From positions 1-64,000 of IMG/VR virus record IMGVR_UViG_2898902220_000006: 64,000 nucleotides of DNA. One strand, written 5' to 3'. Source of the stretch: a virus (lineage: Duplodnaviria > Caudoviricetes). Position 1 is the stretch's first letter, and every line of letters starts with the position of its first letter. Shown here piece by piece: positions 17,711 through 40,181 of the stretch. The notes beneath the pieces were generated by a model. The model did no database searches, was not told where the DNA came from, and was given only the letters and a program-made list of their open reading frames with translations. The position numbers were made by a program, and so were the translations under genes.

Positions 17711-17711
17711 C

Positions 17712-20496: not shown

Positions 20497-20497
20497 A

Positions 20498-21756: not shown

Positions 21757-21775
21757 TTAACGCTTTAAGGGAACA

Positions 21776-21812: not shown

Positions 21813-21824
21813 CATAATGATGCC

Positions 21825-22445: not shown

Positions 22446-22531
22446 CACCAAACCCTCCATTCTGTATTCAATTTTTTATTTTAAAAGCAAGAACCCCCTT
22501 ATTATAAAGGGGGCACAAGGCATTTGTCAAT

Positions 22532-23182
22532 TTATTCCAAAGGTATTCCTAATTCAGTACGTTGCTCAGGTGTCATTGCACGAATTTCTTCAAGGCTATA
22601 AAAAATGGAGTCTTCATTCGTTAGCTCTGGAGGTAGCATGTCTGTCTCAATACTATCTATATCGAATTCTTGTATCTTTGTAGTAAAGGTTTTAATCTTA
22701 GGGAAATATGGCAATGGATCAAAAGGTACGTTTCCAAAATCATATTTTGTACCATTTCTTGTTTCAAAGTGTAAGTGAACACCATCGGCGCCACCTGTTT
22801 CTCCCATTTCCCCGATCTGTTCTCCTTCAGAAACTTTCTCATCATCCGAAACCAAGGGTTCTTTATTTAGATGAGCATACCAAGTTTGCACATTTTTTTT
22901 ATCGACAGTATGGTTAATTACCACCAAATAACCATAACTACTCTTTTTACCTTTCTTGCTTTCATGGTATCCAGAAAAAGCAACTTTACCACCAAAAGCT
23001 GAAACTATAGAATCTCCAGCCTTCCCTGCTTTCTTAGCTCCAATATCTAGTCCCTTATGACCATTTCCGTACTTTTGTGTCACTCTAGTAGAGTCGGGAA
23101 CAGGCCATGTTGCGGCTAATGCTGTAGTGGATGAGGTTAGAATTGCTATTGCAGTCAGTAGTGCGAATCCTTTTTTCATCAT
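22532..23182 (-). CDS. Secreted M23-family metallopeptidase
   Basis: Sec signal ending ALA; HKGLDIG, YAHL, HLHFE zinc motifs. Confidence 0.9.
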   Translation of the reverse strand: MMKKGFALLTAIAILTSSTTALAATWPVPDSTRVTQKYGNGHKGLDIGAKKAGKAGDSIVSAFGGKVAFSGYHESKKGKKSSYGYLVVINHTVDKKNVQTWYAHLNKEPLVSDDEKVSEGEQIGEMGETGGADGVHLHFETRNGTKYDFGNVPFDPLPYFPKIKTFTTKIQEFDIDSIETDMLPPELTNEDSIFYSLEEIRAMTPEQRTELGIPLE

Positions 23183-23272
23183 TTATCACCTTTCTACTTT
23201 TCGATATAGAATTGCTCAAACAATTCTTTTGAAAATTAATTAAATATTTACATTGTATCCTTATGAAAATGA

Positions 23273-23293
23273 TGTAAATATTTACAATTGTAA
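23273..23293. promoter_or_regulatory. Overlapping palindromes upstream of M23 gene (TGTAAATATTTACA; TTACAATTGTAA)
   Basis: Perfect 14-bp and 12-bp palindromes; TAAATATTTACA also at 23241-23252. Confidence 0.4.
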
Positions 23294-23554
23294 GGTTAGT
23301 TCATCGCTTTTTTTCTAGCAAAATCTTTTTAGCTTTATCTTTAAGATCAAGTCGGCGTTCAGACCATTCTTGTTTTAATTCTTGTTTTCGTAATATTTCC
23401 TCTGGCTCTATCAATTTCAATTTCTTGATAAGAGTCACCCCATACCAACATAATGGACATTCTAATTGTCTTAAAGGAATAGCTGAAACACGGCTGTTTT
23501 CTTTTCAAAAGGTTTATTCCGTACAGCTTATTCTCATATCCGACAACTACTTTT

Positions 23555-23731
23555 CTAATAAAAAAAATTTTTTCCCTTTAAACGCAAGGGCATGATAAAC
23601 TTGAATGGAGCATTTTTTAAATGCTTGGAGTGTCGGGGTGTTCCTAAGCTTTCGTCGGGCCTATGGGAACATCCCGTTTTTATTTCCCTCTTAACTTCCT
23701 TCTCTGGACATTTATTGTCCCATACTAGCAT
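23555..23731 (-). CDS. 58-aa hypothetical protein (not in ORF track)
   Basis: Strong RBS AGAAAGGAG; MLVWDNKCPEKEVKREIKTG...KNFFY. Confidence 0.45.
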   Translation of the reverse strand: MLVWDNKCPEKEVKREIKTGCSHRPDESLGTPRHSKHLKNAPFKFIMPLRLKGKNFFY

Positions 23732-23850
23732 GTGCCAACTCCTTTCTATGAGTATTCCTTATTTGCTACCCTCCCTTCTCTGGCAACCACAAAAATGATA
23801 AAAATAACGTATTTTTCTATATTTTTCATGTGTTGCCATTTGTTGACTTA

Positions 23851-23880
23851 ATTATATATCAGTAGGAACAAATTTTCCTA
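23851..23880 (-). promoter_or_regulatory. Leftward promoter (-10 TATAAT) with LexA/DinR-like box GAAC-AAAT-TTTC
   Basis: TATAAT on minus at 23851-23856; TAGGAA-N6-TTCCTA inverted repeat at 23863-23880; one mismatch to GAAC-N4-GTTC. Confidence 0.4.
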
Positions 23881-24118
23881 ATAGAAATTTGTGTTAATTA
23901 ATTAAGTCTTTTTGTTTGATTCTCTTATTTTCTCTTAAAAATTAAATCTGGTAATTTTAGTGAAACTATTATCGTGATAAATAATAAGATGCATCGTGTC
24001 CAGAAGGACAAGTCTGGAATCATGTTAATCGAATAAAAGGATAAAAATAGTAGAACTACTGTTAATAAAGTGTTTTTTATAGTGATCATAAAGTAGATTC
24101 TCCTCCTAATTCATTCCA

Positions 24119-24144
24119 AAAAAAAAGAGAGGATGCCCTCTCTA
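24119..24144 (-). terminator. Terminator after peptide gene
   Basis: AGAGAGGGCATCCTCTCTTTTTTTT on minus strand. Confidence 0.75.
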
Positions 24145-24145
24145 A

Positions 24146-24268
24146 TTACCAACCTTCACCTACGCTTTTTGAAGAAGCTGTTGTTTCCAATTCCTTAACC
24201 TCAAAATTCGTTTCTGTAAAGCCGTACAAGGAAAGAATCGCTAGTAAGAAAATTATTCCTCGCTTCAT
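24146..24268 (-). CDS. 40-aa secreted propeptide, RRNPP-type signalling peptide candidate (not in ORF track)
   Basis: RBS AGAAAGGGACGGTG; MKRGIIFLLAILSLYGFTETNFEVKELETTASSKSVGEGW; own terminator. Confidence 0.8.
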   Translation of the reverse strand: MKRGIIFLLAILSLYGFTETNFEVKELETTASSKSVGEGW

Positions 24269-25550
24269 GTAAATCACCGTCCCTTTCTGTCATGACATCG
24301 ACAAATTTGTCTTTTTGTTCTGGTGTTGCAAGATAATCATATTCATAATACTTCAAAATAATGCTACGGACTCTTTCTACATTTTTAAACATGATAGCTA
24401 GGTCTAGAGCTTCAAAGATGTATTCAAACCCTTTATTGCTATCCTCAATTATAAAATAATATGAGGCTAATGCTTGATAAAGTTTTAGCTTATGTCTTTT
24501 GGTAGGAATGCTTGTTTGACAAGCAATTTTTTTGATTTGTTCTTCAAAGGTACAGATCAGTTTTTGAATGCTTTCTATATCTTTATTCTGTAAATATGTT
24601 TCAACAGCAACTGGCAATAACATAAATATTTCAACATCAGTAGCTAAACTAGCAAAGTTGTCAATGTATTCGACATGGCCCATTTCTATTGAAAATAATA
24701 ATTCGTTTAATTTTGAAATTTGCTGATAGCCTTCATAGTTAGCATATTCTTTAGTTATAAGCAATGCTTTATTATAATCTTTCATTTCTCGATAACTAAA
24801 GGATTCATATAGTAAGGCTTCCGCTATGAATTTGTTATCGTTTAATGTGATAGCCAATTCCTTCAATTCTGCTGCATACTTTAATAATTCCCCCCATTTT
24901 TCTACGGCATTATAAAAAGTTAATATTTTATAATACGCTTCTAGTTTATATTCTTCTGGAAGTATAGGAAAGTATTCTAAAAATTGGTAAAGAGTTTGAT
25001 ACCCAGAGACAGTAAGGTCTATATCTCTAGCTATTACAAATCGTTTAAAATAAGAAATGGCTGCTCGTTCATTACGAGTTGTACTGTTCGCGGTCACGAT
25101 ATCATACAAGGGCAGACTGTAGTTTCTTTGATCGGATGAAAAAATATGCTCTGCCATCTTAAAGGTGTTATCAAGAAGCCTTCTTCTATCTGTATCATCT
25201 TTGATCAATTCTATGATCCTCTTTGTAATGTCATATCGTTCTACGTTGATACAACTTGTGAAAAAATCAGCAGTTTTAACAGGTGACAATTTTCCTGATT
25301 CGTTAAAGCATTCCCCAATAAAATACTCATAGAAGGTGTCTTTCGGTAATCCTAAAGCTTCTGTAATAGCGTCTAATTGAGGTAATGTCAATCCCCGTTT
25401 GTTGTTCATTATTTGACTCAAAGTAACTGAATCAATTCCGGTGGCGAGAATCAAATCTTTTTGTTTCCATTCTTTTTTATCAAGTGCATCTTGCAAATGC
25501 TGACGTAGTTCTATTTGTGCCTCTTGATAACTGTATTCCAAAGCTTGCAT
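24201..25550 (-). CDS. XRE-HTH plus TPR-like regulator (RRNPP-like receptor)
   Basis: N-terminal HTH (KQKDLILATGIDSVTLSQIMNNKR); helical TPR-like C-terminus (ALLYESFSY...YNKAL; LASYY...KGFEYIFEALDLA). Confidence 0.8.
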   Translation of the reverse strand: MQALEYSYQEAQIELRQHLQDALDKKEWKQKDLILATGIDSVTLSQIMNNKRGLTLPQLDAITEALGLPKDTFYEYFIGECFNESGKLSPVKTADFFTSCINVERYDITKRIIELIKDDTDRRRLLDNTFKMAEHIFSSDQRNYSLPLYDIVTANSTTRNERAAISYFKRFVIARDIDLTVSGYQTLYQFLEYFPILPEEYKLEAYYKILTFYNAVEKWGELLKYAAELKELAITLNDNKFIAEALLYESFSYREMKDYNKALLITKEYANYEGYQQISKLNELLFSIEMGHVEYIDNFASLATDVEIFMLLPVAVETYLQNKDIESIQKLICTFEEQIKKIACQTSIPTKRHKLKLYQALASYYFIIEDSNKGFEYIFEALDLAIMFKNVERVRSIILKYYEYDYLATPEQKDKFVDVMTERDGDLHEARNNFLTSDSFLVRLYRNEF

Positions 25551-25730
25551 TTACCTATCCCCCTTATTGGTCTTGGAAATATAAGGAAAAACGTAACTTC
25601 CCATATGATACTGTAATTAGATAATATTGTAAACTATAATGAAAGGAAATAAATGATTTTTTTAGAAATATTAAGTACCTATAGGTTCTCAAATATTGTA
25701 GGAGAGAGTAGAAAATCTACTCATCAATGC

Positions 25731-25973
25731 CTATTGTTCCCGTTCCCATTCGTAGAGGTCTTCCATGCGGAAGTTTGGCATGTACGCCTGAATGATGCAA
25801 GTAATGGTATACATAGCTTCTGGAGACATCGGTTTTGTATTGGTAGCATAATGCGATATCATTCTGGCTGAATAACCTGTTCGCCTCGCTAACTCAGCTT
25901 GTTTCATACCAATAAAGTTCAGGACGGGCTGTAATAGGCATTTCCCACGTAGGTAAGATACCATTACATTCAT
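25731..25973 (-). CDS. Small XRE-family HTH regulator
   Basis: GKCLL...MKQAELARRTGYSARMISHY...EDLYEW. Confidence 0.85.
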   Translation of the reverse strand: MNVMVSYLRGKCLLQPVLNFIGMKQAELARRTGYSARMISHYATNTKPMSPEAMYTITCIIQAYMPNFRMEDLYEWEREQ

Positions 25974-26026
25974 TCCCTATAGGTTAATATTTGATTTATC
26001 AGAGGCAAAATTATTTCCTAAAACCA

Positions 26027-26056
26027 GAACATACATTCCCGTTTTTATGTTATAAT
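26027..26056 (+). promoter_or_regulatory. Extended -10 promoter (TGtTATAAT) with LexA/DinR-like box GAAC-ATAC-ATTC over the -35 region
   Basis: TG at 26048, TATAAT at 26051-26056; box has one mismatch to GAAC-N4-GTTC. Confidence 0.55.
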
Positions 26057-26119
26057 AGTTTTAACAACATTTAACAACTATGAAGAGAATTTAAAAGTAA
26101 TAGGATGGGGGATTGATCA

Positions 26120-26299
26120 ATGGTACGTGATCGCGTAATTGTAGATATAGACAAATTAGCAAATGTAATAAAGATCAATTTACGAAATGTAATAGATGTT
26201 ACACCTAATATTATTCGTAATCGCGTTCAACACGAAGAAAGGCAATTAACTTTTTCCATTCCTTCTCGGTCAACTCCCGACCATCCACAACTACTTTGA
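26120..26299 (+). CDS. 59-aa ORF convergent with and overlapping the repressor 3' end (not in ORF track)
   Basis: RBS AGGATGGGGG; MVRDRVIVDIDKLANVIKINLRNV... Confidence 0.45.
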   Translation: MVRDRVIVDIDKLANVIKINLRNVIDVTPNIIRNRVQHEERQLTFSIPSRSTPDHPQLL

Positions 26300-26642
26300 A
26301 CTGTTTTCTTAATTCTTCATCGGATAGATCAATATTTTTTAGAAACTCTTTTTCGTTTTTATACGAATCAGGGTTTTCTTTTTTTTGCAGTTTTTCATCA
26401 TCAGAAGGAGCGTAGTCATATAAGTTAACATCAGTTTTACATAATAAATAATCTGTAGTGACATTAAACAACTCAGCTAGTTTTGCTACAACTTCACTAG
26501 GAACATTGGTAATTTTTTCACGTTCATAATTTGAGATATTAGCTCTATTCATATTGAGAAGTTTTGCTAGGTCATCTTGTGAAAATCCTCTTTTTTTTCT
26601 TAACTCGGCAAGTCTTTTTCCGAATGTCATACTGGAATTCAT
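26211..26642 (-). CDS. Prophage A immunity repressor, XRE family
   Basis: FGKRLAELRKKRGFSQDDLA...ISNYERE...FNVTTDYLL; no S24 peptidase domain. Confidence 0.9.
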   Translation of the reverse strand: MNSSMTFGKRLAELRKKRGFSQDDLAKLLNMNRANISNYEREKITNVPSEVVAKLAELFNVTTDYLLCKTDVNLYDYAPSDDEKLQKKENPDSYKNEKEFLKNIDLSDEELRKQFKVVVDGRELTEKEWKKLIAFLRVERDYE

Positions 26643-26669
26643 CTCCTATATTACGATGAGTAATTTTTA

Positions 26670-27035
26670 ATTTCGAAATTCACACTTGCGCAATTTTGAA
26701 TTACATGTTATCTTAATCTACGAAAGGAGGTGAACCCATGAAAGGTTCAACAAAGAAGCCTGTTAGAAAACCTCGATTACGTTTTAAAGAATTGAGAGAA
26801 TCTAAAGGCACTCAGTTAAAGGTTGCGCAAGATATGGGAGTTACTGAGACAACTGTGAGATATTTAGAGAATGGTTACATTAATCCTAGTGTAACTACGT
26901 TATTTGGTTTTGCTCATTACTTTGGAACAGATGTTTATGATCTTTGGCCTGACTTAGCATTTCAAGGTGTAGAAGTTTAAGAAAGATAATTGTTCTGTTG
27001 AGATTAGTATATTACGTAATTCATAATTACGCAAC
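26670..27035. promoter_or_regulatory. Operator-like palindromes ATTNCGNAAT
   Basis: ATTTCGAAAT at 26670, CTTGCGCAAT at 26685, ATTACGTAAT at 27011, ATTACGCAAC at 27026; weaker copies at 26130 and 26179. Confidence 0.55.
26738..26980 (+). CDS. Cro-like XRE regulator
   Basis: Divergent from repressor; TQLKVAQDMGVTETTVRYLENG. Confidence 0.88.
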   Translation: MKGSTKKPVRKPRLRFKELRESKGTQLKVAQDMGVTETTVRYLENGYINPSVTTLFGFAHYFGTDVYDLWPDLAFQGVEV

Positions 27036-27174
27036 TGGCATTTTACAATTTGTGCAAATGTTTCTTTGTTATGCCCATAGAGTAATTAATAATTACTTTC
27101 GTAGAGGAATTACAAATTACTATTGCCATCCAATCATCAATTCATACTTAAAAATAAAAGCGAGGAGATTTCAA

Positions 27175-27888
27175 ATGAAACAACTACAGGTGATTAATCA
27201 AAATGGACAACTATTAGCGGACAGCCGAGAAGTGGCTGAAATGGTAGGGAAACGGCACGATCATTTGATTAGAGATATTGAGGGGTATGTAGCTGTTTTG
27301 GATCAAAACCCAAATTTGGGGACTGACCATTTTTTCTTTGAAAGTAGCTACACATCTGGAACAGGGAAACGATACAAATGCTATCTACTAACCCGCAAAG
27401 GTTGCGACATGGTAGCTAATAAAATGACTGGCGAAAAAGGTGTTCTATTTACTGCCGAGTATGTTACTCGATTCGAAGAAATGGAAAAACAGCTAAGTGG
27501 CAACAACTTTACTGGATTGAGTAAGGAGTTACAAGCAATCTTCTTTCTGGATAAAAAAACGCAGGAGATTGAAAGTCGTGTAACACATTTAGAACAAACG
27601 TCAACGATTGATTACGGGCAACAACTAGAGATTAGTAATTCATGCAGAAGTCGAGTTATGCACATTACTAGCGGTCGCGAGAGCAATGCATATAAAGATA
27701 TAAACCTACGTTCTAAAGTTTTCAAAGCTATATGGAGAGATTACAAGAATTATTTCAAGGTTGATTCTTACCGCAATACTTCTCCATTGGATTATCAAAA
27801 GGCCCGTGAATATATTCAGACATGGAAACCGGATGGGAAGCTGTTACGCGAGATTGACGAAGCTAACAACCAATTAAGTTTTGTATAG
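27175..27888 (+). CDS. Rha-family regulator / antirepressor with ORF6C-like C-terminus
   Basis: ATG 27175 after GAGGAG; DSREVAEMVGKRHDHLIRDI, YLLTRKGCDMVANKMTGEKG. Confidence 0.9.
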   Translation: MKQLQVINQNGQLLADSREVAEMVGKRHDHLIRDIEGYVAVLDQNPNLGTDHFFFESSYTSGTGKRYKCYLLTRKGCDMVANKMTGEKGVLFTAEYVTRFEEMEKQLSGNNFTGLSKELQAIFFLDKKTQEIESRVTHLEQTSTIDYGQQLEISNSCRSRVMHITSGRESNAYKDINLRSKVFKAIWRDYKNYFKVDSYRNTSPLDYQKAREYIQTWKPDGKLLREIDEANNQLSFV

Positions 27889-27995
27889 GAAGGAGAAAAG
27901 TAAATTGACACTTTTAAAATTGGCTGAGATTTGGGGAAAGAAGCCTTTGCAACAGGCTATCATTCTACGAAACGCACAACGAGAGGAGAAAAACC

Positions 27996-29513
27996 GTGGA
28001 AATTAAGTTTATATCTATTAAACTGCACAATTTTAAAAGTCACCGTGATCTTGTCGTAGAGTTTGGCGACCTTACCAAGATCACAGGTGACAACGCAAGA
28101 GGGAAATCTAGTATTTTAGAATCCATCTCATGGACATTGTACGGTACAGATACGTTAGGTAGCAAGACCGATCCAACACCTACCAATTATGAATACGACC
28201 ATATATACACAGAATTTTTACTATCTGTTGATAACAAGCAGATTTTACTTGGTCGCTCGATTGAAAAAGGCAAGAGCAAACTGTATGTAAATGAAGTCCC
28301 GACAAAATCCACAGAGTTTGACGAACTGGTCAAGTCTCTATTTGATAAAGATTTATTCTTAGCTCTATTTAATCCGGTCTACTTCTCTTCTCTACATTGG
28401 GAGAAACAGCGTAGTATGTTGCTTCAATACGTTACACCACCACTAAACAAAGAAGTATTTGCACAACTACCAGAAACACAAGCAAAAAAGCTGTCTGAGC
28501 AATTGAAAAAACACACATTATCAGATTTAGAAAAGATTCATCGGGACAATAAAAACAAGATGGACAAGGCTCTTATAGCGGAAGCAAGTCGTACTAGAAC
28601 TTTGCAAAATCAACTCAAACATGTATCTCAACTTGATATCAATGTGGAAGAAACGAAATCAGAAATTGAAAAGCTCACAAATCAGATCAAAGAGATAGAA
28701 GCTACCACGTTTTCAGCAAGTGAAAACAATCAACGATACAGTTCTTTACATGCTCAAATCCAGTCCCTACAAGAACAAGTTAGTTCCTCAGCTTCAAAGT
28801 GGCCCTCATTACGTGACGAGGCTATTGAGGACACATGCAGAACATGCAAGCGGCTATTAGATGCGGATTCAATTGAAGTAGTAAAGACAGACAAAGCAGA
28901 GCGAGAAGAACAGTACAAAGTTAATCACAAGTTGTTGGTGACAAAAAGAAACGAACTTCAATCTCAACTTGGGCATTTTGAATTTATTGATGTGTCGGAA
29001 CAACTCGAAAAAATTCGGGAGCTAGAAAAAAAACAAAAATCATTACTTGCTAACATTGCGGTACAAGATCAAAGAGAACTGCTACTAGACCAGATTAAAC
29101 AGGCTGAGAGTGCGGAAATTGAAACTCGTGAAAGTCGAAATGAATCCATCCTAGTGTTGGATGCAATCAAGGCCTATGAAGCTAAAGCCGCAGAGTTACA
29201 AGCAATGAAAGTGCAAGACCTATTTACTACCCTATCCGTTCGCTTGTTTAAACAGAACAAAGGTGACGGTGAATATAAACCAGATTTTGAAATTGAAATG
29301 GACGATAAACCATATCGAAAGCTTTCCCTCTCTGAAACCATCCGAGCAGGTTTGGAATTGCGAGACGTTTTGAGTAAACAGTCAGGAATTATTGCCCCTT
29401 GCTTTGTGGATAATTCAGAATCTATCACTCGCTTTACTAGACCTTTAGGACAGTTAATTACATCCAGAGTGGTAGCAGATCAAGAATTGATAATCGAGAC
29501 GGAGGGCAAATAA
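27996..29513 (+). CDS. SMC/Rad50-like AAA ATPase
   Basis: Walker A GDNARGKSS, coiled coil with CRTC hook, LSLSE signature, FVDNSES. Confidence 0.9.
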   Translation: MEIKFISIKLHNFKSHRDLVVEFGDLTKITGDNARGKSSILESISWTLYGTDTLGSKTDPTPTNYEYDHIYTEFLLSVDNKQILLGRSIEKGKSKLYVNEVPTKSTEFDELVKSLFDKDLFLALFNPVYFSSLHWEKQRSMLLQYVTPPLNKEVFAQLPETQAKKLSEQLKKHTLSDLEKIHRDNKNKMDKALIAEASRTRTLQNQLKHVSQLDINVEETKSEIEKLTNQIKEIEATTFSASENNQRYSSLHAQIQSLQEQVSSSASKWPSLRDEAIEDTCRTCKRLLDADSIEVVKTDKAEREEQYKVNHKLLVTKRNELQSQLGHFEFIDVSEQLEKIRELEKKQKSLLANIAVQDQRELLLDQIKQAESAEIETRESRNESILVLDAIKAYEAKAAELQAMKVQDLFTTLSVRLFKQNKGDGEYKPDFEIEMDDKPYRKLSLSETIRAGLELRDVLSKQSGIIAPCFVDNSESITRFTRPLGQLITSRVVADQELIIETEGK

Positions 29514-29514
29514 A

Positions 29515-30423
29515 TTGACTACTCAACTACAAGAAGCAAATACAAACGTAGTTATCGGCAATTTCACGCAAAGGGAACTAGATACACTCAAAGCGACTGT
29601 TGCGAAAGGAACAACTAATGAACAATTCTCCTTGTTCGTTCAAACGTGCGTAAGTTCTGGATTAAACCCTTTTCTTAATCAAATATATTGCATCGTTTAT
29701 AGAGGGCGTGACGGGGCAGTAATGAGTATGCAAATTGCTGTTGAGGGTATTGTTTCCCTAGCTAAAAGAAACCCACATTACAAGGGCTTTATAGCTTCTG
29801 AGGTTAAAGAACAAGATGAGTTTGAAATTAACGTAGCGGCAGGAGAAGTAACACACAAAATCACAGCCATGCAACGTGGTAAAACGATCGGGGCCTATTG
29901 CGTAGCTTACCGTGAGGGGGCGCCGAACGTTGCGGTTGTAATAACCATAGACCAAATCGAACATTTAATTAAAGGTCGCAATAAAGATATGTGGCGCGAT
30001 TACTTTGACGACATGATCGTAAAGCATGCAATGAAACGAGCGTTCAAACGTCAATTCGGGATCGAAATTGCTGAAACTGAAAATGTTCCTTCTGAAACCT
30101 CTATCGAGAACATGCCCGAATATGAACCTACACAACGCGAAGTTGTGGTTGAGGTGAACGGTGAAGAAGTTAGAAATAAGAGTGAAAATGTACCTTCCTC
30201 TAATGCCGAAGATGAAGAAAGTCATATTAAGCGGATCAAGAAGGAATTAAAACATAAGTTTGAAGTGTTAGGTATTAGCGGAAAAGAAGAAATAAACGCA
30301 TATATGCAACAGCATTGCCCAATCAAAGGAAATGCCCCTACTCTAGCAGAGCTAACGGGCCTACTAAAAATCATGGATAAGCACATTGCTGAAATGAACA
30401 GCAACGATGATGAACTGGAATAG
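29515..30423 (+). CDS. recT: RecT/Bet-family single-strand annealing protein
   Basis: GLNPFLNQIY...IAVEG...GAYC...MIVKHAMKRAFK. Confidence 0.88.
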   Translation: MTTQLQEANTNVVIGNFTQRELDTLKATVAKGTTNEQFSLFVQTCVSSGLNPFLNQIYCIVYRGRDGAVMSMQIAVEGIVSLAKRNPHYKGFIASEVKEQDEFEINVAAGEVTHKITAMQRGKTIGAYCVAYREGAPNVAVVITIDQIEHLIKGRNKDMWRDYFDDMIVKHAMKRAFKRQFGIEIAETENVPSETSIENMPEYEPTQREVVVEVNGEEVRNKSENVPSSNAEDEESHIKRIKKELKHKFEVLGISGKEEINAYMQQHCPIKGNAPTLAELTGLLKIMDKHIAEMNSNDDELE

Positions 30424-30432
30424 GAGAAATCA

Positions 30433-31188
30433 ATGAAAGTCAAAATCCTTGCATCCGGTTCAAATGGAAACTGCATAGCGATTCAATACGGTGATAAATG
30501 CATTCTTATTGATGCCGGAGTTGCCAAAACAAAGATAGAAAAGGCTCTACTAGAACAGGGCATCTACCCTACTAATGTACAAGCCATATTCATTACACAC
30601 GCACATGGGGATCATGTAAAAGGTTTGCCATTTGCGAACAAGTACAAAATTCCAGTGTTCGCCACTTATGGCGAATGGAGAAGTATATCAAAAGTGGATA
30701 TGGAGCTACAAAAACCAATAGAAACGATCTATGGGGCATACCAAGTAATTAATATACATGGGGCGAGTGTTTGCCCCTTCCCTACTCATCACGATGCATA
30801 CGAGCCTGTAGGGTTCTCAATCATACATGACCAGATGAAAGTTAGTGTGTGCTTGGATACTGGCAAGGTGGATAAGGAAATGTTAGAAGCTATGAGAGAT
30901 TCAGACATTTACATTATTGAGTCGAATCATGAACCAGAAATGGTTGAAGTAGGTCAATATCCTAGCAACGTAAAAGAACGTATCTTGTCAGACAATGGAC
31001 ATTTAAGCAACGAGCAAACAGCGAGGGCATTACAGCGATTAGTACAGGGGAATGGTGAACATATCTATCTGGTGCATTTATCTAGTAAAAATAATTTGCC
31101 GTCTCTAGCAGAGCTAACAGTAAAACAATTTTTGAAGCAAAAGGGCCTAGTAATAGGAGAACAATATAAAGTAGAGGTGATTTCATGA
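30433..31188 (+). CDS. Metallo-beta-lactamase-fold nuclease (YycJ-like)
   Basis: [28 protein letters not shown]. Confidence 0.92.
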
Positions 31189-31601
31189 ATAAGGTATTTC
31201 TTATTGGACGACTTACTAAAGACCCTGAGTTGAGATATACGTCCAATGGTGTTGCAGTAGCTACATTTACCCTAGCCATTGATCGGAATTTTACTGGTAC
31301 TGATGGGCGGAAAGAAGCGGATTTCATTGGGATTGTGGCTTGGAAGCAACTAGCCGATCTATGCGCTAACTATCTGGCTAAAGGTAGACAATGCGCCATT
31401 GACGGACGAATACAGACTAGAAGCTATGACAACAAGGAAGGCAAGAGAGTTTATGTCACGGAGATTGTAGCAGAGCATGTGCAGTTTTTAGGGGGAAGCA
31501 AAGGCGAACAAGATAGACAGGGAACCGCAGCGCAACCAAGCGATCCATTTTATAGCCCAGGTCAGAAAGTTCAAATAAAAGATGAAGATTTACCGTTCTA
31601 A
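31185..31601 (+). CDS. ssb: Single-stranded DNA-binding protein
   Basis: [19 protein letters not shown]...DEDLPF. Confidence 0.96.
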
Positions 31602-31626
31602 TAAAAATTATGGGAGATGTTTATAT

Positions 31627-32103
31627 ATGAGAATTCCGATAGATTGTAGAGCATTACAAAGTGAAATCAATAGACTTTCTGACAAGGTAAAAACTCTTAC
31701 ACAGGAAAAAGAATTGCTACAAGGTGAGATTAACAACCTAACTCTTTCTAAAAAATTAAAATTGCCACGCGAGGTTGCAGAAGCGATTGAGCAGGAGTTC
31801 GGGAAAGCATCAAATGATAAAAAACAATGGGGATTTTTCAACATCGTTGTTTGCCGACCAATAAGCTTAAATCACAATGCACGGATCATAAAAAGTTATT
31901 TTCATCCTGATAAATATATCGACCTTGCAACTGCTCTAGTAGCAGGCTATACGATCGAAGAAACCAAGGAAGAACGGATAAAACGTGGGATACAAGCAAT
32001 TTATAACCAATGGACTAGAGAACCATCTATCAATGATGAAGAAGACGGAAAGGACTTAGGTCAACGAGTCTATACTCTGGTAAAAAGGGAATTGAATCTA
32101 TAA
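31627..32103 (+). CDS. Phage hypothetical protein (DUF1642-like core)
   Basis: KLPREVAEAIE...LATALVAGYTIE. Confidence 0.7.
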   Translation: MRIPIDCRALQSEINRLSDKVKTLTQEKELLQGEINNLTLSKKLKLPREVAEAIEQEFGKASNDKKQWGFFNIVVCRPISLNHNARIIKSYFHPDKYIDLATALVAGYTIEETKEERIKRGIQAIYNQWTREPSINDEEDGKDLGQRVYTLVKRELNL

Positions 32104-32115
32104 GTTGGTGGTTTA

Positions 32116-32895
32116 ATGTCTACCCAATTAGAAGATGGTTTTACAAGAATTGCAAATAAAATACTTGAAGATATTAGTAAGATCAGTTTGAACGGCACTC
32201 AATTTAGAATTGTTCTCACGGTGTGGAGATTTACCTACGGCTTTCAGAGAAAGGAACACGAGTTATCAATAGCTTTCTTAGTGAAATCTACAGAAATTGC
32301 TAGGGGACAGATTGACCGTGAGCTTACCGCACTGATTGAACGCAAAATATTAACAGTCGTTCGAACTGGTCGAAGGGGGTCAAGAGTGATTATGTTTAAC
32401 AAAAATCGTGAGGAATGGAATGACCGTCCTCCAATCCGAGGACTGTCCTCTAAAACGAGGACGGAACTGTCCGCTAATTCGAGGACACTACTGTCCTCTA
32501 AAACGAGGAACAAGAAAGAAAGTATTAAAGAAAAAGATAAAGATAATATGTCGTGTTATGAAGAAATCATTTCTTATCTTAACGAAAAAGCTGGTAAAAG
32601 ATTTTCTCATAAATCACCTGCAAATAGAAAATTAATCAATGGCAGACTAGCTGAAGATCGTACAATTGATGATTTTAAATATGTGATTGATGTTAAGTGC
32701 AATCATTGGCTAGGTAATCCAGAAATGGAGGACTATTTACGACCAGCTACTTTGTTTGCCCAAAAGAACTTTGAAAACTATTTAAACCAGAAGGTAAAAC
32801 AACAAGTCGTTAAACAAGACCCTCGAGACAAAGAAACGGATTTCCAAAGATGGGTACAAGGAGGTAATGATCCTGATGAATTTGATTGGTCATGA
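32116..32895 (+). CDS. Replication initiator (lambda O-like N-terminus)
   Basis: QLEDGFTRIAN...WRFTYGF; EIISYLNEKAGK...YLRPATLF...FENYLNQ. Confidence 0.9.
   Translation: MSTQLEDGFTRIANKILEDISKISLNGTQFRIVLTVWRFTYGFQRKEHELSIAFLVKSTEIARGQIDRELTALIERKILTVVRTGRRGSRVIMFNKNREEWNDRPPIRGLSSKTRTELSANSRTLLSSKTRNKKESIKEKDKDNMSCYEEIISYLNEKAGKRFSHKSPANRKLINGRLAEDRTIDDFKYVIDVKCNHWLGNPEMEDYLRPATLFAQKNFENYLNQKVKQQVVKQDPRDKETDFQRWVQGGNDPDEFDWS
32423..32509 (+). repeat. Iteron-like 20-bp repeats in the initiator gene (probable origin)
   Basis: ACTGTCCTCTAAAACGAGGA at 32442 and 32490, variant at 32466 (24-bp period), degenerate copy at 32423. Confidence 0.75.
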
Positions 32896-34207
32896 TACTA
32901 ATATCGACATGATGGCGGAACAAAGTGTACTGGGTGCTGTGCTGTTAAAGCAAAGTGTTTTAGATAAAATAACTTTCCTAGAACCCCGGGATTTTTCAAT
33001 AGACAGCCACCAAAAACTATTTGAAGTTATGCGGTATATGGATTCAAACAGTATTCCAATTGATATCGTGACTGTCACAACTGAATATCTCAATTTAAAT
33101 AGACTAGCAGACCCTAGCTTTGTAACGTATATCACAGAGCTTGCAGGGGCTTGCCCTACTGCTTCAAACGTAAAACACTACGCAAAGCTCCTTAAATCAA
33201 AATCGATCCGTAGAAGAGGTACAGAAGCATTGTATGAGGCTTCCAAACTTTCGGAAAAAAACTTTGAATCGGATGAAGAATACTACTCAGCAATAGAGGC
33301 GGCAGTTTCTAACCTTAGACCAAGTAATACAGGTAAGATGCAACATGTAAAAGATTTTCGAGATGAATATTTTGAGCATTTGAACAAGGAACCTGACTCT
33401 TTGAAAACTGGATTCATAGGATTTGATGATTGGGCAGGCGGTGTACGTAGAGGATGGTTGTACGTTCTTGCAGGTCGACCGTCCGCAGGTAAAACAGCTA
33501 AGTTGTTACAGATGTTGCAGAACATAGCGGAACAGAAAAAAGGTGCTGTTTTTCTTTGGTCGCAAGAAATGGGACGTACTCAAATTATGGACAGGCTAGT
33601 TTCAAGTACATGTGAAATTAACTTCAAACGTTTCATAAGCAAAAAGTTTGAACCGGGTGATATAGAGAAAATAAATCTAGCTTACAATTACCTAGAAAAA
33701 CTACCAATTTACGTAGAAGATAGTTCGGGTGTAACGATCGACGAAGTGCATTCAATCGCTAAGAATTTTGTTAGAAAAGGCGGTAAGCTTGCGGCTGTTG
33801 CGGTTGATTACCTTCAAATCATGTCCATTCCTCAGAAAAATGGCGAACGTAGAGATCAAGCAATTGGACGTGTGACGACAACGGCAAAACGGATAGCAAG
33901 GGAGCTAGATTGTTGCTTTATCATGCTATCGCAAATGACAAGGGACTCTGAAAATGCCGCCAAGCCGCAACTATCGCATTTGAAAGAATCTAGCAGTATT
34001 GAGCAAGATGCTGACGTTGTAGAGTTCCTATGGCACGATTCAAATGATGTAGACACGGGCGGTAAGGTCATACAGTCATTCATCGCAAAAGGACGGGATA
34101 CGGGCATAAACGACTTTAGACTCTTGTTCAAAGGATGGATTCAGCGGTTCTCATGGCTTCCTAACTTAACAGGGGGCGGAAATCATGGAAAGAAAAATAA
34201 AAAATGA
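32867..34207 (+). CDS. dnaB: Replicative DNA helicase, DnaB family
   Basis: AEQSVLGA, AGRPSAGKT, VDYLQ, LSQMTR, LKESSSIEQDADVV. Confidence 0.95.
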   Translation: MILMNLIGHDTNIDMMAEQSVLGAVLLKQSVLDKITFLEPRDFSIDSHQKLFEVMRYMDSNSIPIDIVTVTTEYLNLNRLADPSFVTYITELAGACPTASNVKHYAKLLKSKSIRRRGTEALYEASKLSEKNFESDEEYYSAIEAAVSNLRPSNTGKMQHVKDFRDEYFEHLNKEPDSLKTGFIGFDDWAGGVRRGWLYVLAGRPSAGKTAKLLQMLQNIAEQKKGAVFLWSQEMGRTQIMDRLVSSTCEINFKRFISKKFEPGDIEKINLAYNYLEKLPIYVEDSSGVTIDEVHSIAKNFVRKGGKLAAVAVDYLQIMSIPQKNGERRDQAIGRVTTTAKRIARELDCCFIMLSQMTRDSENAAKPQLSHLKESSSIEQDADVVEFLWHDSNDVDTGGKVIQSFIAKGRDTGINDFRLLFKGWIQRFSWLPNLTGGGNHGKKNKK

Positions 34208-34421
34208 TGAGCAGTTTATGAAATCAGTAGAATGGCTAGTAGAAAAAGCGTATCAAATAGAACACCCCCTAATGGATGAGAAGACAAAAGTCGAGCTGAT
34301 TGCCAAGTACGACTATGTAAGTGAGAGGGTTATCGAATATCGGAAACGCGACCTAGATAAGCTGCTTTATCCAACAGAGAAAGTACAGAAAGTGAATTTA
34401 TCCGATTGGTTAAATGAATAG
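34185..34421 (+). CDS. Phage hypothetical protein
   Basis: RBS GGGGGCGG; coupled to helicase stop. Confidence 0.7.
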   Translation: MERKIKNDEQFMKSVEWLVEKAYQIEHPLMDEKTKVELIAKYDYVSERVIEYRKRDLDKLLYPTEKVQKVNLSDWLNE

Positions 34422-34431
34422 GAGGAATAAC

Positions 34432-34596
34432 GTGTCTGTAAGTTCCAAAAAGGCCCATAAACCTAGAAAAAATCATCCGTGGCGAAATGATTTAATGATT
34501 CACAAAAAAGTAAGTGACTTTGTTACTCTTTCAAATTCAGTTGGCAGAACGAATATAAATGCTATAGGTGGCGGTAGACCATCTTATATGAAATAA
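34432..34596 (+). CDS. Small basic hypothetical protein
   Basis: GTG after AGGAGG; ends IGGGRPSYMK, similar to the end of 53047-53202. Confidence 0.55.
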   Translation: MSVSSKKAHKPRKNHPWRNDLMIHKKVSDFVTLSNSVGRTNINAIGGGRPSYMK

Positions 34597-34678
34597 GAGA
34601 TAGCCACTAATAAGGGCGTAGCTAAAAAAAATGTTCAATAATATTTGAACTATAATACAAAATATAGGAGATAAGATA

Positions 34679-35206
34679 ATGAGATTTGTTGGAATTGACC
34701 CATCAACAAAGACCGGATTAGTTGCTTTAGATGAGCAAGGAAAAGTATTACGAGCCAAGGAGATTACTGGGGCTGGAAGTAAAGACCCTTACCGTATGCG
34801 TACCATGATTGAAGATGTAATGTGCCACATTCACCCGTGCGACTTGATCTGCATAGAGGGATTCGGGTACGCCTCACAGCAAGCCGTACAGAACGGTGGG
34901 ATTGGTTGGGGAATCCGAATGGCACTTGATAAACATGGAATTGACTATAAAGACGTAGCTCCTAATACCGTCAAAAGTTTTGTCGGCGTTACGGGATGGA
35001 CTGGAGAAAAAGGCAGTAAAGTCCGTTTGCAAGGTAAGGCAAAAAAAGATGCGGTTGCTGTAGCTGTCGAGGAAATGTTCGGATATAGTCATGCAAGTGA
35101 TAACGTCATTGACGCTTATGTATTAGCCAGAATTGCCCTTCATCAATATCGGGAGTCCGTAAGAAAGTACAACCTACGCCTTTTAAATAAAAAATATACC
35201 AACTAA
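34679..35206 (+). CDS. RuvC-like Holliday junction resolvase
   Basis: VGIDPSTKTG, ICIEG, PNTVKSF, NVIDAYVL. Confidence 0.88.
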   Translation: MRFVGIDPSTKTGLVALDEQGKVLRAKEITGAGSKDPYRMRTMIEDVMCHIHPCDLICIEGFGYASQQAVQNGGIGWGIRMALDKHGIDYKDVAPNTVKSFVGVTGWTGEKGSKVRLQGKAKKDAVAVAVEEMFGYSHASDNVIDAYVLARIALHQYRESVRKYNLRLLNKKYTN

Positions 35207-35220
35207 GGAGAGAACAATAT

Positions 35221-35631
35221 ATGAAAACATTAGTTAAAGCTACATTCCTTGATTTTAATGCAGGTTCAAAAAAGGACATTTTGAAATTTGAGATTAAAGG
35301 CGATCTTACAGATGCACAAATTGTCAATTTGCATAAATTAAAAGGCAATATTGTGTTCCTGAATATTTCAAGCGACCAGCTCGATATTTACGATTACGAC
35401 AGTGAATCAAACGTACATGAAGGCATTTGGTACAACGTAGAATCAGGCGGAAATGTTGAGGTAACAGAAGATCAATTGACCATTGAAGACGTTCCTACTC
35501 CAGTAGATGAGTTTAACAAGGCAAAAGAAGCTCATGACAATGAAGAAAAGGAACCGCTAGAAGAGACGGAACAAGAAGAATCTAACGTAGATTCTACAAA
35601 TAATGAAAATGACGATGATTTACCATTCTAA
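35221..35631 (+). CDS. Phage hypothetical protein with SSB-like acidic tail (DDDLPF)
   Basis: RBS AAGGAG; acidic C-terminus. Confidence 0.7.
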   Translation: MKTLVKATFLDFNAGSKKDILKFEIKGDLTDAQIVNLHKLKGNIVFLNISSDQLDIYDYDSESNVHEGIWYNVESGGNVEVTEDQLTIEDVPTPVDEFNKAKEAHDNEEKEPLEETEQEESNVDSTNNENDDDLPF

Positions 35632-35697
35632 ATTGTTCATGGCCCCTGCTACTAACAGGGGCAAAATCTTTCAATCCAGGTATTAAGGGGAGATACG

Positions 35698-36153
35698 ATG
35701 CAGATGAGCTTTTTTGCAGAAATAGACCAGAAAGAAACTCATAGGGCTGTAGAGTCTGCATTTGAACAATATCGGTTAAATAAATATTTGATGTTTGAAG
35801 AGCGAGAAGCAAGTACAACAGCGGGATATACAGAAAGGTTTCATGGGCCAACGAATGTAACCAGCGATCAAACTGCTTCTATAGCAATACACAATGTTGA
35901 TACTCTGAACGCAAGAAAGGCTTATTGTAGTTTAGTGGAACGTGCAGTAAATAACTTGCCACGTAAGGAACGTTATTTAATAGAAGAAAGGTACATGTGT
36001 AGAGAAGCAGAGTATATCACTGACTACAATGTATATAATTTTAAGTTTGATCCACCCATTAGTAAGGACACCTACAGAAAAATTCGAAAGAAAGCATTTC
36101 GCAAACTAGCTATGGTATTAAATATCCAAGTCGAAAAAAGTTCTTCATTATAA
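35698..36153 (+). CDS. ArpU-family transcriptional activator
   Basis: IDQKETHRAVE...VERAVNNLPRKERYLIEERY...YRKIRKKAFRKLA. Confidence 0.9.
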   Translation: MQMSFFAEIDQKETHRAVESAFEQYRLNKYLMFEEREASTTAGYTERFHGPTNVTSDQTASIAIHNVDTLNARKAYCSLVERAVNNLPRKERYLIEERYMCREAEYITDYNVYNFKFDPPISKDTYRKIRKKAFRKLAMVLNIQVEKSSSL

Positions 36154-36212
36154 CGGTTAAGTCTAGAAGGCGATTTGAATAAAATATACAACTAGAAAAA
36201 AGGGGGAGTTAG

Positions 36213-36416
36213 ATGCATTCTGTTAAGTCAGAAAATCCAGCAGTTTTAAAAGACATTAGAGAACGGGTTACGCTATGGATTGATGGTAAACATGGCAGAA
36301 TTGGCATTATAGCCCCTAAAGAAAAACCAACACGCAAAGAATGGATTGAACTACATAGGGAAATAGCAAGCATAATAGTTCAATCAGCCAAGAGAAAAAA
36401 TGAGGCCTCCGAATAG
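36213..36416 (+). CDS. Hypothetical protein, last gene of prophage A
   Basis: RBS GGGGGAG; followed by terminator. Confidence 0.65.
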   Translation: MHSVKSENPAVLKDIRERVTLWIDGKHGRIGIIAPKEKPTRKEWIELHREIASIIVQSAKRKNEASE

Positions 36417-36432
36417 GGGCCTCTTCTTTTTT
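36402..36432 (+). terminator. Intrinsic terminator at right end of prophage A
   Basis: GAGGCCTCC-gaata-GGGGCCTC followed by TTCTTTTTT. Confidence 0.75.
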
Positions 36433-36485
36433 GTTCAGTATATTTATATCGCAAGAAATGCATGACTATAGGATTTTTATTTTAG

Positions 36486-37541
36486 GTGTATGAGATAATA
36501 ACGGATGAGCTTATAATTGCTCATACAAACGAAACGGAATACAAAACCTTTATCGGAAATAAAAAGAATGAAGCATTACAGTCTAGAATGATTGTCATGC
36601 CAGTTCCTTACAATCTGCGGGTAGCAGAAGAAGAAAAGATTTATGATAAATTAATTAAGCAATCTGATTTAGGCCATGTTCATATTGCTCCACATGCGCT
36701 ATATACGGCGGCCATTTTTTCTATTTTAACCCGTTTAAAAGAGTCCAAGAAACAAGGCGCTGATCTATTAAAGAAATTACGTTTGTATAATGGTGAATCG
36801 GTTGAAGGCTTCAAAGGCTCTGACATCGAGGAATTACGTAATGAGCATGTGGATGAGGGAATGTCTGGAATTGATCCTCGTTATGTCATAAACCGGATTT
36901 CCAGTGCACTCATTCGTCGTGATACTGAGTCTATTAATGCCTTGGATATTTTGCGGGCATTAAAAGAAGGGCTCGATCAGCATGCTTCCATTAGCAAGGA
37001 ACAGCGAGAGCGTTACTTAAATTTCATCTCTATCGCACGTAAAGAGTACGATGAGATTGCGAAAAAAGAAGTTCAGAAGGCTTTTGTGTACAGCTATGAG
37101 GAATCAGCTAAAACCATGATGGATAATTATCTGGATAATGTTGAGGCGTATTGCAACTCTAACCGCTTACGTGATCCAGTAACAGGTGAAGAATTGGAAC
37201 CAGATGAACGTCTCATGCGGTCTATTGAAGAGCAGATTGGTATTTCCGAAAATGCCAAACGTGCATTCCGTGAAGAGATTCTTATTCGAATATCAGCTTA
37301 TGCGCGTAAAGGTAAACGTTTTGACTACAACACGCATGATCGTCTGCGGGAAGCGATTGAGAAAAAATTATTTGCAGATTTAAAAGATGTGGTTAAAATA
37401 ACAACCTCCACGAAAACACCAGATGAGCATCAATTGAAGAAAGTGAATGAAGTGACACGTCGTTTGGTTGAAGAACACGGATATACGCCAATTTCAGCAA
37501 ATGAACTGCTGCGTTATGTGGGTAGTTTGCTGAATCGATAG
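36486..37541 (+). pseudogene. prkA: 3' half of PrkA/YeaG-family ATPase/Ser kinase, split by prophage A
   Basis: DELIIAHTNETEY...NEALQSRMIVMPVPYNL...GMSGIDPRYV...VGSLLNR; N-terminal Walker A half absent. Confidence 0.92.
36487..36527. other. Candidate att junction of prophage A within prkA
   Basis: TGTATGAG/CTCATACA 8-bp inverted repeat centred near 36507, inner ATGAGC-N8-GCTCAT; PrkA similarity begins at GAT GAG (D-E-L-I). Confidence 0.6.
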
Positions 37542-37549: not shown

Positions 37550-38614
37550 ATGATGAACGACTCCTCGTTTATCGTCTCCAAAGAAGACTGGTCTCTGCAT
37601 CGCAAAGGTCATCAGGACCAGAGCAGACATCAGGAAAAGGTAAAAGAGGCGATCAAGAAAAACCTGTCTGATTTAGTAAGTGAAGAAAACATCATTATGT
37701 CTAATGGGCGAGAAATTATTAAAATACCAATCAGATCGCTGGATGAGTATCGCTTCCGTTACAATTTTAATAAAGGCCAGCATACAGGCCAAGGTCAAGG
37801 GAATTCCAAGATAGGAGATGTGGTAGCTAAAGACGGTGAACCGGCTGATGCTACTGCGGGCCAAGGTCAAGGAGCTGGCGATCAACCTGGTAACGATTAT
37901 TATGAAGCGGAGATTACAGTAGAAGAGTTGCAGGAAATGCTGTTTGCTGAGTTGGAGTTGCCTAATCTCCAAACGAAAGACGAACAGAAAATTACCATAG
38001 AAGATATTCAGTTTAATGATGTTCGGAAAAAAGGTTTAATGGGTAACATTGATAAAAAGCGTACCTTGATGTCTGCAATTCGCCGAAATGCACTAGCTGG
38101 GTATGACGATCTGGAGCTAGGTATCTCTATGGATGACTTGCGATTTAAAACATGGGAAGAGATTGTGAAGCCACATTCCAATGCCGTAATTTTGGCAATG
38201 ATGGATACGAGTGGATCTATGGGAGTTTTTGAAAAATACGTAGCCCGCAGCTTTTTCTTTTGGATGCTTCGCTTTTTGCGTACCAAGTATGAAAAGGTGG
38301 AGATCGCCTTCATCGCGCATCATACGGAAGCGAAGGAAGTGACGGAGGATGCGTTCTTTTCTAAAGGAGAGAGCGGCGGAACCATCTGCTCATCTGCCTA
38401 TCGAAAAGCTTTGGAAATTATCGACGCACGATATCCGGTAAGCCAATACAATATTTATCCGTTTCATTTTTCCGATGGGGATAACCTGACTTCGGATAAT
38501 GAACGGTGCGTGAAATTGGTGAAAGAATTGATGGAGAGGTCTAATATGTTTGGGTATGGTGAAGTGAATCAGTATAACTCACTGTTGTATACACAAAACG
38601 GTTCCACTATGTAG
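37550..38614 (+). pseudogene. yhbH: Sporulation protein YhbH (YeaH/DUF444), C-terminus replaced at prophage B junction
   Basis: [15 protein letters not shown]...MMDTSGSM...SGGTICSS...HFSDGDN...YGEVNQYN, then unrelated [11 protein letters not shown]. Confidence 0.92.
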
Positions 38615-38622
38615 GGAACCGT
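38564..38622. other. Candidate att junction of prophage B plus adjacent hairpin
   Basis: YhbH similarity ends at CAGTATAAC (38570-38578); ACGGTTCC/GGAACCGT hairpin at 38598-38622 spans the recombinase stop. Confidence 0.6.
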
Positions 38623-40181
38623 AAGATAATTTCAATTTCAAATTGCTCTGGTTTCTTCCACTCTTTCTTGCGAATATAGATTACCTTCTCAATAATGGTT
38701 TTGAGGAGGTTATTTTTTTGCTCTGGATCATCTAAGGATTTGTAAGCTTGAATAACCTTGTGAATTTTAGGGATAACCTGAGCTTGCATTTTAAGTCGGC
38801 TTTTCAATTGATTGATTTCGTTCTGAGACTTTTCTATTTCTGCCTCAAGTTGTTTTATCTTATCAGAGATGGTTTTATGTCGTTGTAAGAATAACTCTTC
38901 TGTATAAATTTTTCTTTCTAACATTTCGAATGTTGTTTCTCTCATACTGTGTTGCTCTTTCAATTCGGTAGTAGCTTTTTGAATATAATTAGTTAGTGCT
39001 GACATACGTTCTTCATTCTTATCTTTTCGTTTATTACGACTACTCAGTTCTGTTTGTGTCATTTCTTTTTGTTCCACTAACTCTTCTAAGCCAGCTATGA
39101 TTTTTTCTTCAACCAAGTAAGTTACAATACCTTTCTGTATTGTCTTACATGCAACATTGGTACATCTTATTTGGGGATTAGGTCTTTCAGGATTAACAAG
39201 CTGTGCTAATGTGCGCCCGCATACTCCACATCTTGCGATACCAGCAAGAGGATTAGATACAGATGAGCCTTCTTTTCTAGAGACTCGAAAACGCCCTGTG
39301 TGAGCTTCATTAGCTTTAATAAATAATTCCTGACTAACTATTGGTTCATGCGCATTGTCATGTCTAGTCCATAATTCTGGGGGGAGTCTTTTAGTGACTC
39401 TTTTTCCGTTACGTTTCGTATGTTTCTTCCTGCCCCATACAATGTGACCGATATAGACTTCATTTTTAACTAAATAACTTATGGTAGAGTGTTCCCAGAT
39501 ATCTCTTTTCGAGGGAGCCTTATACCCTGCCTGCATAAGATACTCTATGACTTTAAAACGTCCATATCCTTCAGCCAGTAGCTCGAAGATTTTTTTAACA
39601 ACTGGAGCTTCTTCGGGATGAGGATAGAGCTTTAGGTTTTCGTCTCTTAAATATCCATAAGGGGGGGTTTTAGCGATATGTCGACCATCTTTTACTGCAC
39701 GCCGCCGACCACCTTGCAAACGCTTATTAATCTGTTTTAACTCTTCACGAGCGATGATAGACTTCACACCAAACAATAGTTCTGCACCTTCGGCGTTGCA
39801 GTCGATCACTTCTGAGGGGGTAATAATCAGTGTTTCAGAATATTTAAAAGCTCTGAATATCGTTCCTGCATCGATCATATCTCCACGCCCAAGACGATCT
39901 AAGTCCATCACTATTACGCCATCGCATTCTCCATCTTCAACGTTACGCAGCATCTCTTGTGCTTCTGGTCTTTCCGATAGAAACTCACCTGATACAATTT
40001 CCTCAAAGATTTTTATAACATTATGCTGCTCTCTTCGTACAAGCTCCATTAGCTCACGTTTGTGCTTATCAAGAGTATCGAAGGGGATGCCAGTTTCAAG
40101 GGCCTTTTTTTCTTCTTCGATGTCTTTTCGGCTTTTGCGTAGATGGATAATCACGTCAAGGTTTGTAGGTCTACTCATCAA
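38607..40181 (-). CDS. Large serine recombinase (integrase); ATG at 40178
   Basis: IIHLRKSR catalytic Ser, SGE...[26 protein letters not shown] zinc ribbon, coiled coil. Confidence 0.96.

Follow-up and report, generated by a model that had tools for sequence, protein, structure and literature searches.

A putative gene-intervening prophage in the sporulation gene prkA of Brevibacillus laterosporus

PrkA is an AAA+ protease that was formerly called a serine kinase. In a strain of the Brevibacillus laterosporus group, an open reading frame at the edge of a prophage resembles PrkA only from the middle of the protein onward, which raises the question of whether prkA is truly split in this strain and, if so, whether the phage supplies a new start for the downstream half or the gene is rebuilt by excision. 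The DNA analyzed here, referred to as the window, is a stretch of 64,000 nucleotides (positions 1 to 64,000 of the 84.9-kb IMG/VR provirus record IMGVR_UViG_2898902220_000006) and starts at base 359 of NCBI contig QJJD01000006.1 (contig 6, 189 kb; assembly GCA_003265735.1). The part of PrkA encoded in it shares 97-98% protein identity and 88-90% DNA identity with other B. laterosporus genomes.

An intact B. laterosporus prkA-yhbH locus (L006; prkA 9134-11041, yhbH 11050-12195) was used as reference to place the boundaries between phage and host DNA. Homology to this locus is confined to window positions 36504-38578, with prophage A on the left and a second element, prophage B, on the right. 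The reading frame in question (36486-37541, 351 aa) matches the Pfam AAA_PrkA profile from position 271 of 358 (to 356) and the whole PrkA C-terminal domain (PrkA_C positions 1-255), and DNA homology to the intact prkA begins at 36504, at the GATGAG encoding Asp-Glu of ...ISADELIIAH. This bears out the first-pass annotation, which had placed the start of PrkA similarity mid-protein at DELIIAH. The six codons preceding GATGAG (MYEIIT) are phage-derived. The features on this side of the junction are:

1..36503, plus strand: the part of prophage A lying in the window (Pfam and PHROG matches; left part like sister provirus L092)
36487..36527, no strand: attR, with phage arm TGTATGAGATAATAACG, core GATGA (36504-36508) and host arm GCTTATAATTGCTCATACA
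36504..37541, plus strand: prkA 3' part, host DNA, 345 codons and stop (Pfam, alignment)

Read across attR, the order is TGTATGAGATAATAACG, GATGA and host GCTTATAATTGCTCAT. An att-like inverted repeat had also been noticed at the junction, and a perfect 8-nt repeat formed by TGTATGAG (36487-36494) and CTCATACA (36520-36527) is indeed centered on 36507, within the crossover core. The corresponding attB is the GATGA of the Asp-Glu codons in ...GRFALISADELIIAH..., and these 5 bp constitute the attachment core of prophage A, being the only sequence common to attL and attR.

Because contig 6 begins inside prophage A, the left end of the element had to come from other sequences. In the sister provirus L092, whose DNA is 92-94% identical to that of prophage A in its left part, the prkA 5' part comes first and a gene for a 546-aa large serine recombinase lies next to it on the opposite strand; small genes and those for HNH, terminase and portal come after, and these match the first genes of the window in order and sizes. 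Using the L092 recombinase as query, its 90% cluster led to RAP19272.1 on QJJD01000060.1 (contig 60, L120), which belongs to the same assembly, GCA_003265735.1. The strain's own 5' fragment had been missed by the initial search for PrkA N-terminal fragments and was reached only through this recombinase cluster; when viral contigs were scanned for exact matches to the start of contig 6, none was found. Contig 60 contains host genes, including 243-aa and 157-aa genes also found upstream of prkA in L006, followed by a 305-aa prkA 5' ORF (AAA_PrkA positions 2-278) and the gene for a 546-aa recombinase, which overlaps the end of the prkA ORF. Here attL reads host ...TTTCGGCT, GATGA and ATCAGTTGTTATCTCATGG, with ATCAGTTGTTATCTCAT as its phage arm. 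The phage arms of attL and attR are inverted copies of each other at 12 of 13 positions, as expected for the attP of a serine integrase. No free phage with the prophage A recombinase was found at the DNA level in the phage collection, so attP could be reconstructed only from attL and attR; the result has 13-bp inverted arms around a GGATGAATC-type spacer.

When the host sides of the two junctions were joined in silico at GATGA, the sequence GCT GAT GAG CTT (...ADEL...) was obtained, giving ...ISADELIIAH... in frame and in the register of L006 PrkA. With both halves present and att sites that join in frame, prkA is truly split, and precise excision would rebuild the gene. The AAA_PrkA and PrkA C-terminal domains, the set found in intact PrkA, are both present but divided over two ORFs, with a 5' part of ~292 host codons, a 3' part of 345 codons and at least about 40 kb of phage DNA between them. 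Contigs 60 and 6 are not physically joined, and the assembly gap interrupts a cargo gene that lies between recombinase and HNH. The end of contig 60 (L120 1-486, minus strand) holds the 5' part of an ETX/MTX2-family pore-forming-toxin-like gene (Pfam E 9e-14), and the first ~36 bases of contig 6 (L115) hold the last codons of an ORF, followed by a hairpin. This toxin-like gene is prophage A cargo, and L092 has no such insert at that place.

Within the window, the genes of prophage A begin with HNH and the small and large terminase; portal, protease, capsid, sheath, tape measure and baseplate come next, and then holin with endolysin. The lysis genes are followed by minus-strand HTH regulators, an anti-repressor, RecT, SSB and replication genes, and the last genes encode a RuvC-like resolvase, an ArpU-like activator and a 67-aa protein. 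With lysis, lysogeny and replication modules in place, the gene content suggests a complete-looking prophage. A metallo-beta-lactamase-fold protein with a Pfam Anti-Pycsar_Apyc1 match (window 30433-31188) is encoded as well and is a possible anti-defense nuclease. The closest characterized relative of the 546-aa recombinase is SprA (YokA) of SPbeta, with 42.5% identity over 97% of the length. Pfam domains PF00239 and PF07508 were matched above their cut-offs and PF13408 (zinc ribbon) weakly, below cut-off, and on these sequence grounds the protein belongs with the SprA-clade large serine recombinases. Upstream of the recombinase genes a conserved sigma-A-type promoter, TTTACA-17-TATAAT, was read by eye, and a motif scan of the same regions found no sigma-E or sigma-K match. 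In SPbeta, sprA is expressed vegetatively while SprB sets the timing and direction of recombination (PMC4191935), a regime that is matched by a sigma-A-type recombinase promoter free of sigma-E/K motifs.

Excision by such a recombinase would call for a directionality factor. In SPbeta, the gene order closes with sprB (yotN, 58 aa) and a hairpin before attP is reached, on the side opposite sprA. The right end of prophage A shows a similar arrangement, with a terminator and then attR after the last gene:

36213..36416, plus strand: 67-aa gene, last phage gene before attR, candidate recombination directionality factor (position, linkage, weak structural match)
36402..36432, plus strand: intrinsic terminator closing the phage operon (hairpin 36402-36423 and T tract)

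The 67-aa protein belongs to a small family, which comprises ~30 clusters at 50% identity. Genes for homologues lie at the corresponding place in L110, L113, B. laterosporus LMG 15441 and Paenibacillus algicola, and also in L114, which comes from a different host and has the element at the same prkA site. Two divergent members were examined, and one of them is on a 3.8-kb contig (L127, 1862-3742) with a free-phage arrangement. There a 58-aa family member, preceded by an ArpU-like gene, faces an SprA-like recombinase gene, and the 82-bp spacer between them has arms inverted at 11 of 12 positions, as in an attP. Its attP differs from the prkA type, and the family is therefore linked to the recombinase rather than to prkA. 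The other divergent member (L126) is adjoined by a partial minus-strand ORF. The AlphaFold model of the 67-aa protein (pLDDT 85.6) consists of a helix, a hairpin and a long helix, and its top match among 350,542 PDB chains was the SprB chain of 9DXD, although the similarity is weak both by Foldseek (E 1.5, TM 0.45-0.50) and by VIA-align (Z 4.0, rmsd 5.0 Å over 57 residues). BLASTP gave no alignment of the protein with SprB or with the 66-aa ORF of an Alicyclobacillus element described below, and neither Pfam nor PHROG yielded a match. Inspected by eye, the regions upstream of the 67-aa genes contained only partial ATATACA-type matches and no convincing sigma-E or sigma-K promoter. Overall, we consider the 67-aa protein a reasonably good candidate for the directionality factor.

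The prkA site is shared well beyond this strain. Some 40 of the top 120 clusters of N-terminal PrkA fragments (157-503 aa) end exactly at ISADE plus 0-5 foreign residues. In three genomes that were examined, those of Virgibacillus sp. SK37, P. algicola and Alicyclobacillus acidoterrestris, a large serine recombinase directly follows the prkA fragment and the junction is GATGA-A. The prkA-site recombinases of Brevibacillus, Virgibacillus, P. algicola and A. acidoterrestris are 35-63% identical. Judged from these comparisons, the ISADE segment of prkA is a widely used attB for SprA-like recombinases in several spore-former families. The elements themselves differ. The one in A. acidoterrestris (L116 10001-18047) is a non-phage element of ~6 kb that holds, besides a recombinase, a gerA-type germinant-receptor operon and a 66-aa ORF; the prkA 3' part, yhbH and spoVR lie beyond it. 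In a second A. acidoterrestris strain (L117), the prkA element is present as a tandem duplicate. The complete genome of B. laterosporus LMG 15441 (CP007806.1, ~753-772 kb; L122, L124) carries in prkA an ~18-kb decayed prophage remnant, with fragmentary portal and lysin genes and an IS3 element inserted into the terminator beside attR. The recombinase of this remnant is still intact, its 67-aa gene and the two att sites have been kept, and yhbH is intact in that strain.

In the strain studied here, the next gene is interrupted as well. yhbH begins 8 bp downstream of prkA, and the two are thus probably co-transcribed, but yhbH is itself truncated by prophage B:

37550..38614, plus strand: yhbH 5' part, ~343 host codons and 11 foreign codons, host DNA ending at 38578 (Pfam, L006 alignment/BLAST)
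38558..38577, no strand: 20-bp identity block of prophage B attL, with the same 20 bp at attR ~47.9 kb downstream
38607..40181, minus strand: prophage B large serine recombinase, 524 aa (Pfam, PHROG), only 22-25% identical to the prkA-site recombinases

The 5' part matches Pfam DUF444 up to position 377 of 418, and the split lies at codon ~343. The 20 bp shared by both prophage B ends are GGTGAAGTGAATCAGTATAA. The far side of the split, ~47.9 kb downstream (L090 6690-6944), has attR outside the window and the yhbH 3' fragment beyond the IMG/VR record. Prophage B also carries an AgrB-family gene (window 41429-41941) and, adjoining its recombinase, a small Hol_Tox-family ORF at about 40303-40446 (both by Pfam). 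A provirus of a different Brevibacillus source (L113/G005) shows the same double split of prkA and yhbH. In Brevibacillus, insertions also occur at two or more other places in prkA, about residues 142-148 and ~511, and at ~residue 221 in yhbH (L102-L108; G002 and G003, the records of L094 and L095; G004, the record of L110). From the distribution of these insertions, the prkA-yhbH operon is an integration hotspot in Brevibacillus.

Following from this organization, prophage A is probably an SPbeta-style gene-intervening prophage in prkA, whose excision with a directionality factor would rebuild the gene. The SprA-family recombinase encoded at the far left end (contig 60) recombined attP with attB in prkA. 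The prkA promoter is thereby separated from the prkA 3' part and from yhbH, which is co-transcribed with it, and a phage terminator stands just upstream of them. In the integrated state no functional PrkA would be made, and the gene would be rebuilt only by precise excision through the recombinase and a directionality factor, most likely the 67-aa product. Such excision is predicted upon phage induction, although the sequence data examined contain no excised attB or attP molecule. By analogy with SPbeta in spsM and skin in sigK, it may also take place in the sporulating mother cell, which we put forward tentatively, with slightly less than even confidence. The earlier suggestion that prkA is split in the manner of skin or SPbeta therefore stands in its structural part, given that both halves are in one assembly, the recombinase is of the SprA family, the frame is restored on joining and the site is reused across Bacillota; its developmental part is held at the tentative level just given.

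Three other accounts of the locus were weighed against this reading. A chimeric join or other assembly artefact, with prkA truly intact in the strain, could be suspected from the fragmented assembly and from prophage A being broken over two contigs, but it has next to no probability: the attR junction recurs in an independent Logan assembly of the strain, at least four other Brevibacillus genomes (the complete CP007806 among them) have equivalent junctions, and the matching attL is in the same assembly. The first-pass annotation had further proposed that the phage re-drives the downstream operon while integrated, by means of a start codon of its own:

36486..36488, plus strand: in-frame GTG, proposed restart codon, overlapping the attP-derived arm

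Under this account, a phage-side promoter and GTG 36486 would give a C-terminal half PrkA and drive yhbH from the integrated prophage. The arrangement it described, a phage-side terminator followed after ~50 bp by an in-frame GTG (MYEIIT-DELII), is present. The terminator (36402-36423; 8-bp stem, 6 G-C pairs, T tract) lies about 54 bp upstream of the GTG, two terminator-like sites were found in the region against 0.3 expected in shuffles, and a related hairpin and T tract occur in sister prophages. Besides being in frame with the prkA 3' part, the GTG has an AGGA 12 nt upstream, a weak Shine-Dalgarno sequence and the only one there, and two promoter-like pairs can be read in the region, a weak one of the sigma-E type and one of the sigma-70 type (36490-36517, 10/12 matches). 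The start codon and the sigma-E-like motif are, however, not conserved. The GTG directly follows a TAG stop. L110, L113 and LMG 15441, three sister prophages integrated at this site, have GTA in its place and no canonical start between stop and core. The sigma-E-like CATGACT (36461) is replaced by unrelated bases in sister prophages, and promoter-like matches near the junction (one, against a shuffle mean of 2.3) are not enriched; the sigma-70-like pair would, moreover, start transcripts downstream of the GTG. Related elements do not share a conserved start codon with ribosome-binding site at the junction. In other genomes, 12 of 30 clusters of prkA 3' fragments split at this site start in frame within element-derived DNA, with extensions of 2-54 aa that are unrelated and heterogeneous in sequence, while the remaining 18 start at a host Leu or Met codon directly after Asp-Glu. 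With three start and three stop codons, about half of random junctions would have an upstream in-frame start, so that 12/30 fits chance. The terminator upstream of the junction also speaks against phage-driven expression, as does the truncation of yhbH by prophage B. Walker A Lys108, needed for ATPase activity and sporulation (PMC9512850), is in the separated 5' half, and the 3' half-protein would thus lack it. We therefore regard a restart as very improbable; the in-frame GTG is most likely a chance part of the attP arm.

A stronger competitor is that prophage A may be an ordinary inducible prophage with an attB that lies by chance in a conserved gene. prkA would then be off in lysogens and restored only on induction or loss, with no excision in the mother cell, and the strain would sporulate with reduced or altered efficiency or manage without PrkA. 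Large serine recombinases often target conserved coding sequence as a reliable attB, and the complete-looking modules of prophage A and the lack of a sigma-E or sigma-K motif near the recombinase or 67-aa gene agree with this account. The prkA 3' part, however, has no defects, and its dN/dS is 0.019-0.022 at dS 0.63-0.67 against other split-carrying strains, in line with the 0.016 against the intact allele (overall dS range 0.63-0.76). The decayed LMG 15441 remnant and the ~6-kb non-phage Alicyclobacillus element, both at the same site and with both prkA halves intact, have kept their recombinases, which together with the low dN/dS favors continued function through excision. The low dN/dS could instead reflect recent independent integrations rather than selection on the split gene. 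In B. subtilis, sporulation drops when prkA is lost (PMC9512850), and the closest relative of the recombinase is SprA, whose element, SPbeta, excises during sporulation (PMC4191935); both points count against an ordinary prophage. This account is credible, but on the evidence as a whole we consider it somewhat unlikely.

The closest parallel to prophage A is SPbeta in spsM of B. subtilis. Both are inducible-looking prophages inside a mother-cell sporulation gene, with related recombinases, sigma-A-type recombinase promoters and a small last gene before attP, opposite the recombinase and followed by a hairpin, and excision restores the reading frame in SPbeta as it would in prophage A. The two differ in target (prkA, not spsM), in the attachment site (a 5-bp GATGA core vs the 16-bp site annotated in the SPBc2 record), in size and type (~40-kb myovirus vs 134-kb SPbeta-like phage) and in the directionality factor, the prophage A candidate having no sequence similarity to SprB. 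Excision during sporulation is established for SPbeta and is a tentative proposal for prophage A. Skin in sigK (SpoIVCA; B. subtilis, C. difficile) is likewise a serine-recombinase element that splits a mother-cell gene, and the LMG 15441 prkA element resembles it as a decayed prophage remnant that retains its recombinase. In contrast to skin, the element in the window is a complete-looking prophage, and no sigma-E promoter was seen at its recombinase gene. The gene-intervening elements vrin in spoVR of Geobacillus thermoglucosidasius and vfbin in spoVFB of B. weihenstephanensis (cited in PMC4191935) also lie in mother-cell sporulation genes, with targets different from that of prophage A; in the prkA-yhbH-spoVR cluster, spoVR comes third (order in L116). 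Growth-phase-dependent excision has been reported for gin in gerE of B. cereus (PMC5595907) and yin in yabG of C. botulinum (PMC10747680), serine-recombinase elements in sporulation genes that differ in targets and cargo from the prkA elements; the 6-kb A. acidoterrestris element is likewise non-phage.

According to field reviews, the sporulation genes documented as split by excisable elements are sigK, spsM, spoVFB, spoVR, gerE and yabG. Full-text literature searches returned no paper naming prkA or yhbH as the target of an intervening element, in agreement with the first-pass remark that no prkA-intervening element was known. prkA is thus not among the handful of documented split genes in the literature searched, yet its ISADE segment is a widely used attB. 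A broader and more speculative proposal is that the two prophages lock prkA-yhbH so that both must excise in the mother cell, that the 67-aa family represents new directionality factors for SprA-like recombinases, and that PrkA-YhbH-SpoVR is a preferred landing pad in spore-forming Bacillota (at least three prkA and two yhbH sites in Brevibacillus); taken as a whole, we think this unlikely. A strain with a complete-looking prophage in prkA and a second one in yhbH nevertheless poses the question of two coordinated rearrangements in sporulation. In prophage A, a serine integrase comes with a defined attP/attB pair and with a candidate for a new directionality factor; the repeated use of one attB and the interruption of two genes of the same operon are of some interest as well.
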